From Ignavibacteriota bacterium (GTDB lineage: Bacteria; Bacteroidota; Ignavibacteria; UBA10030; UBA6906): a stretch of 64,000 nt of DNA. The DNA lies in the NCBI GenBank assembly GCA_963808715.1, contig CAWEHG010000034.1, forward strand, positions 35,909 to 99,908, given 5' to 3'. The notes under the pieces are model-generated. The model saw only the letters and a program-made list of their open reading frames with translations. It was not told the origin of the DNA and made no database searches. This document shows, piece by piece, positions 10,902 through 19,798 of this stretch. Positions within the stretch are counted from its first letter, which is position 1. Each line of letters starts with the position of its first letter. A program made the translations under genes and the position numbers.

Positions 10902-12144
10902 ATGGCCACCCTCCGCCCCTTCAAAGGATTCCGTCCCGTCCCGTCCCTTGCCGCACAGGTCGCGGCCAAACCGTACGACGTGCTGAACTCCGACGAGGCC
11001 CGCGCCGAAGTCTCGGGCAAGCCGCTCTCCTTTCTCCATGTGGGGAAACCGGAGATCGACCTCCCGCGCGACGTGGATCTGTACGATCCGCGCGTCTACC
11101 AGAAGGGAGCCGACAATCTCCGGAAGCTGATCGCCGACGGGGTGCTCCGCGAGGATCCCCGGCCCTGCCTGTATGTCTACGCGCAGACGATGGGAGGACA
11201 CACGCAGTATGGCATCGTCGGGTGCGCCTCGGTGTGCGGAGTATCTGAACGACACCATCAAGAAGCACGAGCTGACCCGCAAGGACAAGGAGGACGACCG
11301 GACCCGGCACGTGGAGGTCACCAACGCCCATTCCGGCCCGATCTTCCTGACCTACCGCGCCCGGCCGGAGCTGGACAGGATCGTCGCGAGCGTCACCGCC
11401 TCTTCACCCGTGAACGATTTCACCGCGGAGGACGGGATCGGCCACCGGCTCTGGGTGATCAGCGACCCCGCCACCATCAGTGAGGTCTCATCGGAGTTCG
11501 CGAAGATCGATCTGCTCTACGTGGCCGATGGGCATCACCGCTCGGCCGCGGCGGCCAGGGTCGGCAAGGCGCGGGCCGACAAGAATCCCGGGCACCGTGG
11601 GGACGAAGAATACAACTTCTTCCTCGCGGTCCTCTTCCCGCACAACCAGCTGCGGATCATGGACTACAACCGCGTGGTGAAGGACCTGAACGGCCGGACC
11701 CCCGAGCAGTTCCTCGAAGCGGTTCGGAAGCAGTTCGACGTGCGGGAACATACGGGGCAGGCTCGTCCCGGGAAGAAGGGGGAGGTCGGACTCTATCTTC
11801 GGGGGCGGTGGTTCATGATGAATGCGTTTCCGGAGCTGCTTGCCGCGGCCGATCCGGTGGAGCGGCTGGACGTCTCGATCCTTCAGCGGCACCTGTTGAC
11901 GCCGGTGCTCGGGATCGACGATCCGCGGACCAGCAAGAGGATCGATTTCGTGGGGGGGATCAGGGGATTGCAGGAACTGGAGAAGCGGGTGGATTCCGGC
12001 GAGATGGCGGCGGCGTTCGCGATGTATCCGACCTCCATCGAAGAACTGCTGGCGATCGCCGACGCGGGGAAGATCATGCCTCCCAAGTCGACCTGGTTCG
12101 AACCGAAGCTGCGGGACGGGATGGTGGTGCACTTCCTGGATTGA
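10902..12144 (+). CDS. DUF1015 family protein, with an apparent frameshift near 11235
   Basis: GIVGCASV then (after the shift) YLNDTIKKHELTRKDKEDDRTRHV...GPIFLTY...LYVADGHHR are conserved DUF1015 blocks. Two overlapping ORFs (10902..11483 and 11173..12144) together cover one protein. Confidence 0.65.
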
Positions 12145-12798: not shown

Positions 12799-12874
12799 GT
12801 CTGCGTACCCGCGAGTGAACGATCCGCCGGCGGTCCGCCCGCCGGGCCGGTCGACAATTTTGGCGCCCGGGGAC

Positions 12875-12928
12875 TTGACAGAGCGACAAAAATGTCATAT
12901 CTTAACGTCGTGAATATAACGATTCACG
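12875..12928 (+). promoter_or_regulatory. Sigma70-like promoter (TTGACA-17-TATCTT) plus a perfect palindrome CGTGAAT-N6-ATTCACG (12909-12928); candidate operator of the adjacent S24 repressor
   Basis: The -35/-10 hexamers are read directly. The inverted repeat lies immediately downstream of the -10, between the divergent repressor and DUF72 genes. The GAGGAGG RBS is at 12951. Confidence 0.4.
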
Positions 12929-12962
12929 GTCTGGATGTCAAGTCTTTCTTGAGGAGGTCCTG

Positions 12963-13874
12963 ATGGAACGACGGAGAGTGGAGGTGCTGGTGGGGATCGG
13001 CGGTTGGGAGCACGAGGTGCTGGACCGATGCCTGTACGGCGCGCATGGGTGGGACGCCGCGAAGAAGCTGCGCGCATACGCGCGCTCGTTCCGCACGGTG
13101 GAGGTGAGGCCCACGTTCTGGGACGATGCGTTGTCGGGCGCCGACGCGCGACAGTGGGTCGAGGCGGTCAGCGGTGAGAAGGGCTTCCTCTTCCAGGTCA
13201 AGCTCCATTCGTCCTTCACGCATCAGAAGCAGATCCGGCCGGCTCTGGCGCGCAGCACCAGGGAGATCCTGCAGGTCCTTGCCGGGGCCAACCGGCTCGG
13301 AGGGCTGTTGATGCAGTTCCCGTACGCCTTCACGAACGTCGGGGCACACCGCTCGCATCTCCAGCGGCTCGCGGAGGAATTCCGCGAGTTCCCCTCTTTC
13401 GTCGAACTGCGCCACGATTCATGGAACCAGCCGGGTCTGAGCGGCTCCCTCGCCCGGACCGGATTGAGGATCGTCCAGTCGGACATGCCGCGCCTGCGCC
13501 AGTTCATGCCGTTCACCACCGGCATCGTCGGCGAGACCGCTTACCTTCGACTGCACGGGCGCAACGAACGGGGCTGGCTTCAGAATGGGATGGACGCGCG
13601 TTACGACTATCTCTACAACGGGCGTGAGCTGAGGGAGATCTCGAGGAGGATCGAAGCGATGATCCCGCGATGCTCCCGGGTCATCATCATCTGCAACAAC
13701 ACGACGAATGGCAAGGCTGTTGCCAATGCCTTCCAGCTCACGTCCGCGGCCCTGGACCGCAAGGTCCAGATCCCTCTGCCGTCGCTGAAAGAATTCCCCC
13801 AACTCGCCGAGGTTGCACTCGGTCAGGAGGGTCACCCCCTCTTCGTCGAGGGGGATTACCGGCAAGCAATGTAA
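12963..13874 (+). CDS. DUF72 (YecE-like) family protein
   Basis: Full-length similarity to the DUF72/UPF0759 pattern (EVLVGIGGWEH...FRTVEVRPTFW...). Confidence 0.75.
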   Translation: MERRRVEVLVGIGGWEHEVLDRCLYGAHGWDAAKKLRAYARSFRTVEVRPTFWDDALSGADARQWVEAVSGEKGFLFQVKLHSSFTHQKQIRPALARSTREILQVLAGANRLGGLLMQFPYAFTNVGAHRSHLQRLAEEFREFPSFVELRHDSWNQPGLSGSLARTGLRIVQSDMPRLRQFMPFTTGIVGETAYLRLHGRNERGWLQNGMDARYDYLYNGRELREISRRIEAMIPRCSRVIIICNNTTNGKAVANAFQLTSAALDRKVQIPLPSLKEFPQLAEVALGQEGHPLFVEGDYRQAM

Positions 13875-13879
13875 GACCG

Positions 13880-15224
13880 CTATCTCGCGGGGCCGCCGGA
13901 CCTTGGGCCGCCACCCGACCTCGGGCCACCGGACCTCGGGCCACCGGACCTTGGGCCACCGGACCTCGGGCCACCGGACCTCGGGCCACCGGACCTGGCC
14001 CGCCGGACCTCGGGCCACCGGACCTCGGCCCACCGGACCTCGGGCCACCGGGCCTCGGCCCACCGAACCTCGGGCCACCGTCCTCGGCCCCGGCCTGGAG
14101 CCACCATGGGGTCCGCTGCGGCCCGGACCACCGCTGCCACCCGGCCTGAATCCACCAGGTCCCCGCGAATCCTGTCCGCCCGGCCCGCCGCGACGCGGGC
14201 CACCGAATTTCGATCCGCCCCCTCCTGGACCCCTGTAGCCCGGGCCACTTCGGCCAGCGCCACCGAATTTCGAGCCTCCAAACTTCGAGCCCCCGAACTT
14301 CGGGCCTCCGTATTTCGGACCTCCGGCCCTGGGCCGGTCTTGACCCGGGCCTGCCGGTCTTGGCCTGTCGAATCTTCCCCCTCCGGACGCAGGCCGGCCG
14401 TGCTCCTGACCTTCCGGCCTCGGCTTGTCGAACCGGGGCCCTCCGGGCCGAGACCTCCGGCTGGGACCTCCGGGCCTTGGACCTCCGGGCCTTGGCCTTA
14501 CCGTAGCCAGGTCCGCCGCGGCCGGATCCACCGAACTTCCTCTCCCCGGGTCCCGATCCTCCAGGACGCCCCCCTTCACCACCCTGGCCGCCAAACTTCG
14601 GAGCGCCCGGCTTGAATCCACCGCTTCTGTATCGGACCGGCCGTTGACCCCCTGCATCTGAACCTCCGGTTTCCCTCGGTCTGGCCCCTCGGGTCTTGAC
14701 CCTTCGTGCTCTTCCTTCTTCTCAGGACGCGGAAGGATCTCCGCGACCGAATTGACGAAGGAACCAAGCAGCGCATAATCCTCCGCACGGCGCACAAAAC
14801 CGGCCTTCACCGCCAGCATGAAGAGAGCCCTTGCGGCGTCGATCGTCCCCTCCTCCTTCCGAAGGACCCGCTCCTGGTACTTCTTCGACCAGAGCGTGTG
14901 TTCCCGTGAAGCCTCATAGACCGTACCCGATGCCGAGCGGAACGCCTGGAGAAAGACCTTGAAATCCGCCTCATCGGTCTTCCCTCGCACGATCATCCCG
15001 AGCCGGTCGGGGAGGAAGCAGTAGGCATACACGTCGAACTGGTGCGTCTGCGCCGCATCCCGCAGGGCGCCAAGCACCCCGAAAACGATCTCCCCTTCCG
15101 CGAACGCCGCACGCTCGCCGTACGTCGGGAGCGTGACCAGATACCTGTGCGTCCCGCGGTAGTCGAACCGTTCGCGGTCCGGGTCCGGGGTCTTCTCCAG
15201 ATGCATCTCGTCGATAGTGGTCAC
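13880..15224 (-). CDS. IS200/RAYT-like Y1 'transposase' fold domain with a degenerate HuH motif, fused to a roughly 280-aa Gly/Arg/Pro-rich low-complexity tail (FGG/RGG-like, SGGPR repeats). The 3' end is uncertain.
   Basis: The N-terminus HRYLVTLPTYGERAAF...VYAYCFLPDRLGMIV...TLWSKKYQERVLRKEE...LAVKAGFV matches the COG1943 blocks, but HxH is replaced by RLG. The tail reads GGPKFGGSKFGGSKFGG...RGPGGFRPGGSGGPG. The SGGPR frame ends with a stop at 13880; the listed ORF runs on to 13419 only because of a frame slip inside the repeats. Confidence 0.5.
13891..14090. repeat. Tandem array of a 15-bp unit (ccggacctcgggcca, about 13 copies). Degenerate related repeats continue to about 14700.
   Basis: Directly visible. 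All three frames stay open on both strands. On the minus strand the frames read RGPVA / VRWPE / SGGPR. Confidence 0.85.
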
Positions 15225-16705: not shown

Positions 16706-16969
16706 TTACAGTTCGATCCCCCGCCCCTTCAGGAAGACGCGGATCCGGGCAACCGCATCCGCTTCGCTGATCTGCAGCCGTGCCCGGGCGGTGGTGACGG
16801 CGACCTCCAGCGGGTCGCGCCGGTCCCTCAGAGCCAGGTAGACGTTGTAACCGAGCCGGTCCAGGTCATGGGGATCGGTCGTGGGGATTCCTGCGACAGC
16901 CGCATAGGCGGTCTGTTCCAGGGTGTTCTCGCCCGCAGGCTTGACGGTGGACGGGGTTTTGGTGGTCAT
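16706..16969 (-). CDS. Small hypothetical protein (87 aa)
   Basis: An ORF in operon-like position between the Omp85-patatin and marC genes. No recognised motif. Confidence 0.3.
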   Translation of the reverse strand: MTTKTPSTVKPAGENTLEQTAYAAVAGIPTTDPHDLDRLGYNVYLALRDRRDPLEVAVTTARARLQISEADAVARIRVFLKGRGIEL

Positions 16970-17031: not shown

Positions 17032-19798
17032 CTACAGCACATAGCCGAACATGAAATAGAGCAACAGCGGTCCTTCCTGCAGCGGATTGTTCGGGAGATC
17101 ACGGCCGAAGTAGAATCCCTTTCCGACGCTGAACACCGCGGGGCCGATGGGCGTATCGAGGGCCAATTCCAGGCCGAGACCGTAGCGGACCGTCTCGAAC
17201 TTGATCTCTCCCGGATCGGTGGACATGGACGCCATGTCGAACCGACCGCGCAGGTACGAGTCGACCAGGATCCTGAACGGGAGCAGATACCGGAACTCCA
17301 GGTTCAACTGCAGGAGCTGACGGCCGCGACGGTCGTCCTCGCGCACGCCGAACATGGATTCCTGCCCGCCCAGGCGGAACTCTTCGCTGAACGGCATCGA
17401 CTGGTCGGCATAGCCGAGGGTCACCCGGGGCCGCACCGTGAAGCGTCCCACCGTCGCGTAGCGCTCCCAGACCAGGTGCAGGGAGCTGTACGCCACCTGG
17501 CTGCCGAACGTCTTCGAAGCCGTCTCGTAGCTCAGCGTCAGGCCGATCCCGGAGGTCGGGAACGGGTACCGGTCCTTCGAATCGATGATCGTGCCGAACC
17601 GAAGCTTTCCGATCCGGGTCCGTTCTTCGAGCTGCGGGACACCGCCAAGATCCTCGGTGCGCACGTCCTGCAGCACATACTCGGCCGTCAGGTTCCCGAA
17701 CCGCTCCAGTTGCAGGCCGAACGCCACGATCCCGCCGTACCGCGTGTCCCGGTATTCCCCCACGTTCACCCGGTCCCATTGATTGAGCCCGGGAGGGGGA
17801 GCGTCCTCGTAGAGATAACTGTCGAGCGAGCTGGCGAAGGCTGCGGCCCTGAATGTCAGATGGGTTGCGAAGAGCCGGTAGGCCTTGTACTCCAGCAGCG
17901 CGCCGGCGGAGCGCTGCCCGCCGTATCCCGTGAAGCCGAGCTCCGTACCTCCGCCGCCGAGGCTGATGTCGCGGATGTCGACCTGTCCCTGCACGTGGCG
18001 TTCATTGTCGCCCCGGACCCCGAGCCGGATCAGTTGCGAGGGACGTTCTTTCAGCCGGATGACCAGGTGGTTCTCCCTGCCGGCATAGGCCACCTCGAGG
18101 TACATCTGGTCGAAGAGAGCGCCGCTGTTGATGTTGCGGAACCCGCTCCGGGCCTTCGAGATCTCGAACACTTCGCCCGGTTGCAGCGGGAAGTCCGAGA
18201 GGACGAACTCTTCTGACGCGCGAACCGTCCCCAGCACGCGGATCGAGGAGATCACCCCCTCGTTCAGTTTCCAGTGGAGGATCCCCGAGGCCGGATCGAA
18301 GGTGGCCGTATCGATCCGCGCCAGGGAGTACCCCCGCGACCGATACAGCCGGAGGATGTCGTCTCTCCCTTTCTGGACGCAAAGGTGGTTCAACGGCCTC
18401 CCCACGGCGCACCTGGTGAACGACAGCAGTTCCTCGGCACGGACCTTGACGCATCCCTCGATCGCCACCCCTCTGACCGGAGGGTTCCAGGTGGTGTTGA
18501 ACGTCACCGTGCTGCGCGTGCTGTCGGTGGAGATCTCGGCCCGGACGGACGCGTAGTCCCCGTTTCGTAGAGCAGGTTCACGTGATCCTGCACGTCCACC
18601 AGTCTCACGCCGGTCGCCAGGGTGTCGGCCAGGATGTGGCGCCAGAGAGTGTCGGGGATCGGATCTCCCGTCCGGGCAAACAACGGATGGGGCAACACCA
18701 TGCGGGCACTGTCGCCCGCCATTTCGAGCTTCTCCCGTGCGTAGATCGTCAGGATGTTCCTCACGACCGCGGCTGCCGCCTCCTCTCCCCGCAGGATGAG
18801 CGAGTCCAATCCGCCGAAGTCCGAAGAGAGGTGCCTGCCGATATCGGGGGTAACGACCATGTCGGCCCGGGCGAGCTGGAGAGCGTTGGCGGGTCCCATC
18901 ATGATGCCCATGATCTGGTCCGCCGTCTCCCACGGTGCCTTCATCTCCCCGGCGGAGCGCAGGCCGCTGGCGGAGTTCACCGCGATCACGATGTCGCAGC
19001 CGAAGGTCCCGGGCCACATCCACCGGGATGTTGCTGAGGAGTCCACCGTCGACAAGCCTCAGGCTGTCTCGCTCGACCGGGTCGAAGAGGAGCGGGACCG
19101 TTGCGCTCGCCCTGAGCGCCTCGGCCAGCGAACCGCTCTTCAGGATCACCCGGCTGGCCCGACACGAGGTCCGTCGTCATCGCGCGAAACGGGATCCGCA
19201 ACTCGTCGAACGTGGGAAAGGGGTGGTAGATCGCCTGGAGGGTGAGATTGCTCAGGTATTCCGTCAGCCGCTGTCCCGACGACACCGCGGAAGGGAGCAC
19301 CGGCTCGAGGCCTTCGAAGCGAAGGACGAGGAATCCTTTCTGCACCGCCAGCTTCTGGTCGAGGTACAGGTCCGTCCGTTTCGTTTCATCCGCCAGCGAA
19401 AGCACTTCGTCCCAGTCGGTGTGGACGCAGATGCTCTCGAGTTCCGTGGTCGTATACCCGGAGGCGTACAGCCCGCCGATGATCGACCCGATACTCGTCG
19501 CGGCGATGAAGTCGATGGGAACGCCGCTCCGTTCCAGTTCCCTGATCACCCCCACCTGGGCCACGCCCCGCGCACCTCCGCCGCTGAGGACCAGGCCGAC
19601 CCGGGGCCGCCGGATGTGCCGGTGACCGGCGGGGACAGAGACCGCGGCATGTGTGGTGTCCAATACCGGGGTGACCACCCACGTTTCTGCGCCGTGGCGG
19701 GGAGCCAGGCGCAGAGGAGCAACAGCGCCACGCCGGCGGCCGACGCGCCGGAAACTCACCGGGAGCCCCCTGGAGGGGAGGATGGGGGTGCAGTGCAT
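17032..19798 (-). CDS. Patatin-like phospholipase fused to POTRA + Omp85/BamA-type beta-barrel (PlpD-like), with apparent frameshifts near 18500-18560 and 19000-19050; the 5' end is uncertain
   Basis: The patatin [17 protein letters not shown] (GxSxG) and DGG-region are split across three ORFs/frames. The C-terminal 480 aa have surface-antigen D15 barrel features and end in an aromatic terminal (FGYVL). A probable signal peptide ([14 protein letters not shown]) sits in a third frame near 19690. Confidence 0.65.

Follow-up and report, generated by a model that had tools for sequence, protein, structure and literature searches.

A chromosomal protein family of Ignavibacteriota and Bacteroidota with a RAYT fold, a replaced active site, and a basic Gly/Arg/Pro-rich tail

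The gene at positions 13880..15224 (minus strand) of the window, the whole 64-kb stretch of Ignavibacteriota DNA analyzed here, encodes a protein of ~448 aa, given four single-base frame changes. Its ~140-aa core keeps the RAYT fold, and its ancestry lies among the class 2 HuH-Y1 proteins (RAYT/TnpA_REP). As judged from alignment, every RAYT active-site residue has been replaced, namely both His, the catalytic Tyr, and the Asn of the Y---NP motif. The gene belongs to a family, here called dead-RAYT, that is real, uncharacterized, chromosomal, and vertically inherited. We favor, at a probability of about 0.6, a joint reading in which this family was exapted for non-catalytic nucleic acid binding and the frame changes in the window copy are likely assembly indels. 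As all catalytic residues are lost and a disordered Gly/Arg/Pro tail is carried, binding without cutting is the most likely activity. No paper describing a dead RAYT fold joined to a long Gly/Arg/Pro tail was found in the literature, in agreement with the first-pass annotation, which knew of no characterized protein with this architecture.

The start was assigned to the GTG codon at 15224 because the N-terminus MTTIDEMHL resembles homologue N-termini, e.g., MTTIDVMKL in P0002; the TAG stop is at 13882-13880. The core domain occupies 14754..15170 (minus strand; aa 19-157). The ~160-aa N-terminal domain matched the NCBIfam model NF047646 (REP_Tyr_transpos) with E=1.9e-17 and 63.5 bits, under the 80-bit cutoff of that model. 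Pfam PF01797 (Y1_Tnp) is blind to the window protein, with no match even at E<=1 for either the full ORF or the N-terminal domain, and detects only 4 of 23 family members. PF01797 and RAYT models had been named earlier as checks on the proposed Y1/RAYT-type fold of the first ~160 aa; the Pfam check failed, while the RAYT model gave a positive match short of its cutoff. Pfam being unable to decide the fold, the assignment was drawn from NCBIfam, a PDB profile search, and a predicted structure. A family profile (alignment A1; 20 invariant columns across 23 sequences) matched 4er8_A, the E. coli RAYT YafM, with E=5e-8; this profile was required, since a single-sequence phmmer search against the PDB was marginal (E=0.37). 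The AF2 model had a pLDDT of 86.7 overall and >90 across most of the core. It has strands at residues 27-34, 63-71, 74-81, and 117-121 and helices at 44-60, 88-104, and 127-140, arranged as in HUH-Y1 proteins, where alphaB and alphaC lie on one face of a four-stranded sheet and alphaD lies on the opposite face. With this model, the best Foldseek match was again 4er8_A (E=8e-9; TM 0.67/0.71; rmsd 2.7 over 138 columns). RAYT is thus the best structural and profile match, which bears out the fold assignment. Residues in common with RAYTs include W94, the E-(H/R)-x-(I/L)-R strand, the P-V-K-x-G segment of alphaD, and the C-terminal Y/W-x-x-x-GS motif.

The active site of E. coli TnpA_REP contains H59, H61, Y115, and N119 (PMC3479197). 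The Y---NP motif has been defined previously (PMC3479197, PMC6006769), and its combination with DHxH is the class 2 signature (PMC6006769). In the window protein, H59-M60-H61 of 4er8 aligns to R74-L75-G76 (cgg ctc ggg; 14997..15005, minus strand), and the R-L-G reported at the HuH position was therefore read correctly. The metal ligand N119 has given way to L137 (14814-14816, minus strand), and H123, a further ligand, is also replaced. The first-pass annotation held that the catalytic tyrosine was kept; however, Y115 of E. coli, in helix alphaD, aligns to A133 (14826..14828, minus strand), and the catalytic Tyr must therefore be counted as lost too. The residue at issue, Y116 in LWSKKYQER (14877..14879, minus strand), is a structural aromatic of strand beta4 that aligns to F98 of 4er8 (WQPRFWEH), and its position is Y or F in dead and intact relatives alike. 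Across the 71 family members in the census, His is absent throughout from the H59 and H61 positions, Tyr from the Y115 position, and Asn from the N119 position, whereas the nearest intact relatives keep these four residues in 21-23 of 23 cases. The Pro of Y---NP survives in 65 of 71 family members. Structure prediction confirmed an HUH fold, and in the alignment no catalytic residue remains.

It is extremely improbable that transposase or nuclease activity persists through non-canonical residues. In its favor, the fold is kept, and three conserved residues (Y116, E118, and R119) lie close to the former active site. Against this, the substitutes for all metal ligands and for the nucleophile differ from member to member (R/K/Q/E at H59, V/A/L/I at H61, and E/Q/D/A/G at Y115), and the gene is single copy and syntenic, with gaps of 5-51 nt to its neighbors and no terminal hairpins or REPs. 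Repeat finding and k-mer counts detected no REP-like elements in the 64-kb window; outside the tail, no 16-mer and only one 14-mer occurred in three or more copies, and Rfam gave 0 matches on the whole window. Unlike RAYT genes, the dead-RAYT gene has no flanking REP/BIME within the window, and it leaves no room for flanking hairpins, its neighbors, an SDR gene and a DUF72 gene, lying 51 nt and 5 nt away. The likeness to IS200/IS605 TnpA (IS608, ISDra2; 2A6M, 2XM3, 2XO6) lies in the HUH ferredoxin-like core (Foldseek E of 1e-6 to 1e-5); the molecule ends superpose poorly (rmsd 8-13 at full length). In contrast to these transposases, the window protein has neither HuH nor Y---Q, and the locus shows no inverted or terminal structures such as subterminal hairpins, no tnpB context, and no IS.

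The dead-RAYT family comprises >70 sequences drawn from MAGs of Ignavibacteriota/Bacteroidota (P0001-P0047, P0050-P0071, L001-L032, and L046), which share core similarity, a D-R-L-type HuH replacement, a basic C-terminal tail, and a common neighborhood. Such MAGs are present in fen and soil samples, and a profile search gave 6548 matches. The window protein matches them with E values of 1e-26 to 5e-44 and 42-65% identity over the full-length core; in a scan of genome contigs, its best match was 58% identical. The dN/dS values of 0.06-0.30, typically ~0.15, indicate purifying selection. There is one copy of the gene within the 64-kb window and one locus per MAG, and the order patatin-Omp85, orf87, optional MarC, optional SDR, dead-RAYT gene, convergent DUF72, LexA-like, DUF1015 is kept in >20 genomes. 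This synteny may be a mere product of close kinship among the genomes, in which case it would be uninformative on function. The invariant columns, low dN/dS, conserved synteny, single copy in the window, lack of room for flanking hairpins, and lack of dispersed repeats in the 64 kb together argue that the gene is functional and not decaying. As in RAYTs, the gene is single copy, chromosomal, and vertically inherited. The earlier view of a domesticated, catalytically altered protein that is no active transposase is upheld, on stronger evidence than was first offered, by the replacement of H59, H61, Y115, and N119 in 71 of 71 members, by the synteny, and by purifying selection.

Intact relatives (P0072, P0074, and Terriglobia loci L033-L042) are 27-33% identical and share the F-D-V-Y-A-Y-C-F-(L/M)-P-D strand and the LW...(D/E)R-V-L-R segment. 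They differ in the presence of DHxH and Y---NP and in tails of 6-24 aa (one of 51 aa) that are not basic low-complexity sequence. Family cores carry a net charge of +6.7, versus about +1.6 in these relatives; the window protein and L046, at only +2, lie under the family mean.

The C-terminal tail of the window protein, ~286 aa and rich in Gly, Pro, and Arg, is spread over three reading frames, with single-base frame changes at four places, near 14651, 14499, 14081, and 13989. The 1345-nt length of the gene is not divisible by 3. Read in one open frame from 15224, it gives an ORF of 601 aa, of which 455 nt are antisense to the DUF72 gene and whose exact product has no counterpart on record; this reading was rejected, as its last ~150 aa would be antisense to DUF72 and the stretches 14651-14499 and 14081-13880 would be A/V/L/W-rich, as in out-of-frame Gly-rich DNA. 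Three-frame translation and a Viterbi frame path instead gave the following course on the minus strand. The tail starts in the frame of the domain (ILPRPEKKEEHEGSRPEGPDRGKPEVQMQ; 14652..14735) and continues with a segment that is Gly/Arg/Phe-rich at offset 2 only (GGQRPVRYRSGGFKPGAPKFGGQGGEGGRPGGSGPGERKFGGSGRGGPGYG; 14500..14651); the shift between them, near 14651, adjoins a G5 run and survives in the Viterbi path even when each shift costs 12 nats. Offset 0 then returns (RPRPGGPRPGG...GGPKYGGPKFGGSKFGGSKFGG...GGSRPGPR; 14082..14499), with a 15-nt KFGGS repeat at 14259-14325 inside this segment, followed by a further segment at offset 2 (DGGPRFGGPRPGGPRSGGPRSGGPRSGGPGP; 13990..14081). The final segment, at offset 1 (13883..13989), consists of (GGPRS) repeats ending in GGGPRSGGPAR. 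It is preceded by a 14-nt repeat unit, i.e., a 1-nt deletion in a 15-nt array. This tandem array (repeat family D1; TRF) covers 13910..14105 on the minus strand with a 15-nt period, 13.4 copies, and 85% matches, and encodes a GGPR(S/F/P) pentapeptide.

The long Gly/Arg tail described earlier is therefore only partly as claimed: the KFGG and SGGPR repeats are present in the DNA and a long tail occurs in L046, but the window tail is not one ORF and includes four frame changes. That a long tail is real follows from L046, a 65% identical homologue whose uninterrupted 399-aa ORF closes with like terminal GGPRx repeats (GGPRQGGPRQGGPRQGGPRRGGPRRGGPRRSGGG, then the stop) just before the convergent DUF72 gene. 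Two conserved neighbor genes of the window are frame-broken as well, with a frame change near 11230 in DUF1015 and four frame pieces in the patatin-POTRA-Omp85 gene, which is a single ORF in L002, L011, L020, and L028. Since both are affected, assembly indels, rather than biology, are the likeliest source of the tail frame changes.

A different account would leave the family functional elsewhere and make the window copy a pseudogene, or its product truncated or aberrant, with real frame changes in a slippage-prone GC-rich repeat. We consider this unlikely. It draws on the four frame changes within ~0.8 kb, which are denser than in the neighboring genes and contrast with none across the 8-kb stretch at 26.3-34.7 kb, where other long genes align in one frame; on the shift that is a 14-nt unit in a 15-nt array; and on junctions not all of which are homopolymers. 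However, the four further frame breaks held by DUF1015 and patatin-POTRA-Omp85 point to sequence quality. Moreover, the N-terminal domain is intact, and because each tail segment retains a clean, stop-free KFGG/GGPR-type frame, no further decay of the tail is apparent.

It is very improbable that the Gly/Arg-rich region is noncoding, as an expanded intergenic tandem repeat 3' of a ~170-aa protein would be. In the window, the domain and the 13880 stop share no single frame, and the high GC content keeps all frames open; both speak for such a repeat. Yet L046 and at least 7 other family representatives have long tails in frame with the domain, all tail repeat periods are multiples of 3, and the tail stops exactly at the neighboring gene (stop-to-stop gap to DUF72 of 5 nt in the window and 13 nt in L046). 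In addition, short tails of relatives have motifs in common with the window tail, e.g., RFGRPRPG and GGKFRKPGR. Some relatives have a ~3-kb insert between the dead-RAYT gene and DUF72, which was considered as a source of the tail and rejected, as it is an unrelated PAS-histidine-kinase/receiver gene on the opposite strand.

Basic tails of the other family members range over 19-227 aa, are rich in Gly, Pro, Arg, Lys, and aromatics, and have expanded independently via different, lineage-specific tandem repeats that stay in frame. Intact long tails are found in L046, P0051, P0063, P0069, and others, and those of P0051, P0056, P0062, P0063, P0069, and P0071 reach 100-227 aa, each from differing repeats. 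The window tail is the longest seen, and tails span ~20 to ~290 aa overall, with a family tail charge of +0.22 per residue. As reconstructed, the 286-aa window tail is 36% Gly, 18% Pro, and 15% Arg, has a net charge of +40, and includes 8 [KR][FY]GG and 14 GGPR motifs but only 2 RGG. In composition it is of the RGG/FGG type, i.e., low-complexity Gly/Arg sequence with aromatics and strong positive charge. Tails of bacterial DEAD-box helicases (RhlE1/RhlE2; DeaD) are similarly low-complexity, Arg/Gly-rich, length-variable, and fast-evolving, with scattered aromatics, and those of RhlE, which are basic and disordered, strengthen RNA binding and promote phase separation (PMC11260450). The likeness is compositional and not homology: the window tail is joined to a dead HUH fold in place of the RecA-like core of a helicase, is unusually Pro-rich, and is built of KFGG and GGPRS units, not RGG. 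It also differs from the RAYT C-terminus, an auto-inhibitory stretch of ~25 aa with E161, in place of which the family protein has a basic disordered tail.

The core net charge, the basic disordered tail, and two retained basic residues are the pointers from which we infer, reasonably from sequence, nucleic acid binding by the dead-RAYT protein. The E. coli residues R78 and R97 contact the hairpin (PMC3479197) and align to family R96 (at least 90% conserved) and K115, and the family thereby resembles RAYTs in having basic residues at two of three base-specific hairpin contacts. These residues could be structural instead. In the favored reading, DNA would no longer be cleaved or joined, and the protein would work by non-catalytic nucleic acid binding. 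The dead HUH fold would recognize specific structures, such as single-stranded or hairpin DNA or RNA, via its retained alphaB/alphaC face, and the tail would add high-avidity non-specific binding, possibly with condensation, comparable to that of the disordered C-termini of bacterial DEAD-box helicases. Tentatively, and with a probability well short of even, this can be extended to a prokaryotic HUH pseudo-enzyme derived from a RAYT exapted in an Ignavibacteriota ancestor, a housekeeping protein which would bind hairpins, ssDNA, or RNA with the Arg at the old metal site directly gripping the phosphate backbone and the rapidly expanding tail driving condensation. The RGG/FGG-like tail might then act as a nucleoid- or RNA-granule-type organizer, and, if true, eukaryotic RRM-plus-RGG proteins would have in it a bacterial counterpart built on a transposase fold.

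Alternatively, the dead HUH domain might be a protein-interaction or regulatory module, such as a scaffold, an inhibitor of an active HUH enzyme, or a decoy for one, with the tail as a flexible linker or solubility tag. Conservation of the N-terminal peptide M-x-x-V/T-T/D-E-M-x-L despite its predicted disorder might mark a short linear motif for interaction; furthermore, no repeated hairpin or target sequence was found within the window. However, an active RAYT or IS200-type partner is absent both from the window and from the syntenic loci, and a basic, aromatic-bearing tail on a more basic core is typical of polyanion binding. An interaction module therefore appears rather improbable.

RAYTs are the textbook example of a domesticated bacterial transposase and are still nucleases. 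The dead-RAYT family would show a step beyond them, with catalysis lost, the fold under purifying selection, and a fast-evolving basic tail gained, and would give a tractable bacterial example of a transposase exapted as a binding protein. Its tails of 20-290 aa form a natural length series for the tuning of nucleic acid binding by disordered tails. The labels "putative transposase" and "RayT" now attached to these proteins in metagenome annotations are misleading for mobile-element censuses.

PADLOC gave no match for the domain, orf87, or DUF72, and a defense-island reading was therefore rejected. A link to stress or DNA damage had also been suggested via the LexA-like-controlled DUF72 gene; it is not borne out, as the dead-RAYT gene is merely convergent to DUF72 and no LexA-like operator (CGACA-N4-TGTCG) occurs near or just upstream of it. 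This motif was observed 9 times in the window versus 4 expected, which is not above chance, and its sites lie solely between the LexA-like gene and DUF72 or at a few isolated positions. The conserved operator-like palindromes are confined to the divergent intergenic region between the LexA-like gene and DUF72.

The N-terminal domain of the dead-RAYT gene product (minus strand, 13880 to 15224) was not detected in a Pfam search of the window protein; the Y1_Tnp model, proposed as a check in the first-pass annotation, had no match in the window domain and matched only 4 of the 23 family members. The Y1/RAYT-type fold assigned there was borne out by agreeing NCBIfam, profile-versus-PDB and Foldseek matches. 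Residues 25 to 151 scored 63.5 bits against NCBIfam NF047646 ('REP-associated tyrosine transposase'; E=1.9e-17), short of that model's 80-bit cutoff. In the PDB, a profile built from 23 homologues matched E. coli TnpA_REP (4er8_A; E=5e-8) and IS200/ISDra2 transposases (~3e-3). Strands and helices come in the expected order in the AlphaFold model (pLDDT 86.7, pTM 0.79), whose top Foldseek match in the PDB was likewise 4er8_A (E=8e-9, TM 0.67/0.71, rmsd 2.7), followed by ISDra2, IS608 and IS200 transposases. RAYT/TnpA_REP is the closest known protein by fold and ancestry.

The active site of TnpA_REP consists of Y115 together with H59-M60-H61, N119, H123 and E161 (PMC3479197), and Y---NP is the class 2 signature (PMC6006769). 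These positions were read from the 23-homologue profile alignment and from a MAFFT alignment of 97 sequences in which the 4er8 segment served as anchor. Both placed R74-L75-G76 at H59-M60-H61, the R-L-G replacement already noticed in the first pass, and A133, L137 and A141 at Y115, N119 and H123, respectively. The tyrosine that had been taken as kept is instead Y116 in LWSKKYQERVLRK, which aligns with F98 of WQPRFWEH, an aromatic position of strand beta4 occupied by Y or F in catalytically intact as well as dead proteins. In the MAFFT alignment, no sequence of the family proper (n=71) retained His at H59 (R in 56), His at H61, Tyr at Y115 (E in 43) or Asn at N119, whereas these residues were present in 21, 23, 23 and 21 of the 23 nearest intact relatives. 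As the HuH motif, Y115 and N119 are replaced and Y116 is a structural-strand aromatic, the domain is, judging by its sequence, fully dead for HUH chemistry. The earlier description as 'catalytically altered' therefore stands for the loss of catalysis and not for its being partial, since all catalytic positions are replaced.

A tblastn search with the window's neighbours revealed a gene order shared by more than 20 genomes: patatin-POTRA-Omp85, an 87-aa ORF (orf87), optional MarC, optional SDR, the dead-RAYT gene, a convergent DUF72 gene, a LexA-like gene (HTH_3 + S24) and DUF1015. Copy number and flanking REP elements had been proposed as checks in the first pass: the window holds one copy, flanked by gaps of 51 and 5 nt, and no dispersed repeats were found within its 64 kb. 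The domain dN/dS was 0.06 to 0.30, mostly ~0.15 (Nei-Gojobori, unsaturated pairs), and the 23-homologue alignment contains twenty invariant columns. Together, synteny, copy number, small gaps, the lack of dispersed repeats, low dN/dS and invariant columns argue at the sequence level for a gene that is functional and passed on vertically, neither mobile element nor relic. Filing it as a RAYT was rejected, because the catalytic residues that define RAYTs are missing and so, within the 64 kb, is their REP association.

In 32/32 Ignavibacteriota loci the dead-RAYT gene has orf87 (16706 to 16969, minus strand; 47 to 64% identity) on its upstream side, directly adjoining where MarC and SDR are absent. 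orf87 had no match in Pfam or PADLOC; it is a possible functional partner of the dead-RAYT protein. About ten relatives (L009, L010, L011, L014, L018, L020, L021, L024, L025 and L027) carry a ~2.9-kb PAS/histidine-kinase/receiver hybrid gene between the dead-RAYT and DUF72 genes (for example, L011, 10658 to 13534); the window, L002, L003, L028, L030 and L046 lack this hybrid gene. Rfam returned no family at gathering score over the whole window (1 to 64000).

A homologous-protein search recovered 49 proteins (160 to 214 aa, 42 to 58% identity) from Bacteroidota MAGs, currently annotated as 'putative transposase', 'RayT' or 'hypothetical'. A scan of GTDB representatives gave 32 Ignavibacteriota/Bacteroidota loci, one per MAG, and 10 further loci, mostly Terriglobia, with 27 to 33% identity and DHxH and WYIFNNP retained. 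Among 6548 matches of an exhaustive profile search (1.84 billion representatives), a top tier of ~23 cluster representatives was clearly set off (184 to 244 bits, 171 to 383 aa). The family is real and conserved. Our literature search for a catalytically dead RAYT clade, or for a RAYT fold with a basic tail, found no description; a HuH-Y1 phylogenomic survey took proteins without the HuH and Y motifs to be non-functional in all likelihood and left them out (PMC6006769).

Family tails span 19 to 227 aa (+0.22 charge per residue), versus 6 to 24 aa, and in one case 51 aa, in intact relatives; the window's is the longest seen in the family. Long top-tier members differ in their tandem repeats, with KPWEQKPSGHRPPGN x10 in P0051, RPDFRKSGPSQGG x8 in P0069, QRKDFR units in P0056, RDGKPSGGPSRGG in P0062 and a Ser-rich tail in P0060. 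These unlike repeats indicate that the tail is a family trait that has expanded several times over in independent events, each time in frame. A possible short linear interaction motif is the N-terminal peptide M-x-x-(V/T)-(T/D)-E-M-x-L (aa 1 to 16 of the window protein; 15177 to 15224, minus strand), which is conserved family-wide although AlphaFold predicts disorder there (pLDDT <50).

In TnpA_REP, a positive surface of alphaB and alphaC holds the hairpin (R46, R78, K81, K82, Q83, T85, H86, K91, R97), with base-specific contacts by R78, K82 and R97 (PMC3479197). R78 aligns with R96, at least 90% conserved in the dead family, and R97 with K115. Mean core charge is +6.7 in the dead family versus +1.6 in intact relatives, i.e., 5 units more positive. 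The least basic cores (only +2) are those of the window protein and its 65%-identical homologue L046, whose tails are the longest; these very long tails perhaps compensate. In bacterial RhlE helicases, RNA binding and phase separation are promoted by C-terminal regions that are basic and disordered (PMC11260450), and the window protein's tail resembles these in composition. From the retained R96/K115, the more basic core and the RhlE-like tail, we infer that the dead-RAYT protein would bind nucleic acid (DNA or RNA) in single-stranded or hairpin form without catalysis, and that the tail would add avidity or condensation.

Frame breaks compromise the gene copy in the window itself. A GTG at 15224 (minus strand) opens a frame that continues for 601 aa, to 13419, the final ~150 aa being antisense to the convergent DUF72 gene (12963 to 13874; Pfam E=1e-40). 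The interval 13880 to 15224 does contain the tail in its DNA, as first annotated; its 1345 nt are no multiple of three, so frames had been joined unstated. Three-frame translation of the minus strand placed Gly/Arg/Phe-rich sequence in offset 0 (15224 to ~14652 and ~14499 to 14082), offset 2 (~14651 to 14500 and ~14081 to 13990) and offset 1 (13989 to 13883), ending in ...GGGPRSGGPAR and a TAG stop (13882 to 13880). TRF detected a 15-nt tandem array (13910 to 14105, 13.4 copies), in which one unit has 14 nt, and a second 15-nt repeat (14259 to 14325). The metagenome contig L046 (65% identity in the N-terminal domain) encodes an uninterrupted 399-aa ORF with tail (REGFDRDRRQGPQGGFGKSGG)x4 and C-terminal end GGPRQGGPRQGGPRQGGPRRGGPRRGGPRRSGGG*, 13 nt from the convergent DUF72 stop; this ORF and the long tails of other members uphold the initial view that the Gly/Arg-rich tail is coding. 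With amino-acid log-odds trained on the L046 tail (in-frame versus out-of-frame), a Viterbi path over the window's three frames had to change frame by a single base at four places, near 14651, 14499, 14081 and 13989, all persisting at a 12-nat penalty per change, and terminated at TAG 13880. The reconstructed protein has ~448 aa and a 286-aa tail (G 36%, P 18%, R 15%; net charge +40) with eight [KR][FY]GG and fourteen GGPR motifs.

These four changes could mean that the tail has truly degraded in the window's strain, which we consider unlikely; the simplest reading is indel errors in the window sequence across one coding region, because neighbouring genes carry the same frame defect. The patatin-POTRA-Omp85 (PlpD-like) gene (17035 to 19696, minus strand) lies in four frame pieces (19696 to 19154, 19152 to 19012, 19001 to 18558 and 18564 to 17035), with three breaks within 600 nt (near 19153, 19005 and 18560), none obviously in a long homopolymer. 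The DUF1015 gene (10902 to 12144, plus strand) switches near 11230 from frame 3 (10902 to ~11240) to frame 1 (~11236 to 12144), a frameshift or indel error. Each is one ORF in L002, L011, L020 and L028, the former of ~920 to 1000 aa.

The stress or DNA-damage role hinted at in the first pass rests on adjacency only, since no operator-type palindromes were found in the vicinity of the dead-RAYT gene or on its upstream side (the window-wide site count was not above chance) and the gene shares its orientation with orf87, MarC and SDR and not with DUF72. The divergent LexA-like/DUF72 intergenic region (12799 to 12962) contains TTGACA and CGACA-N4-TGTCG / GACA-N5-TGTC palindromes, at 12852 to 12865 and 12884 to 12897, strongly conserved across eight aligned loci. 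The palindromes resemble operator sites for the S24 repressor (LexA-like, HTH_3 + Peptidase_S24), and DUF72 may well be under its control.
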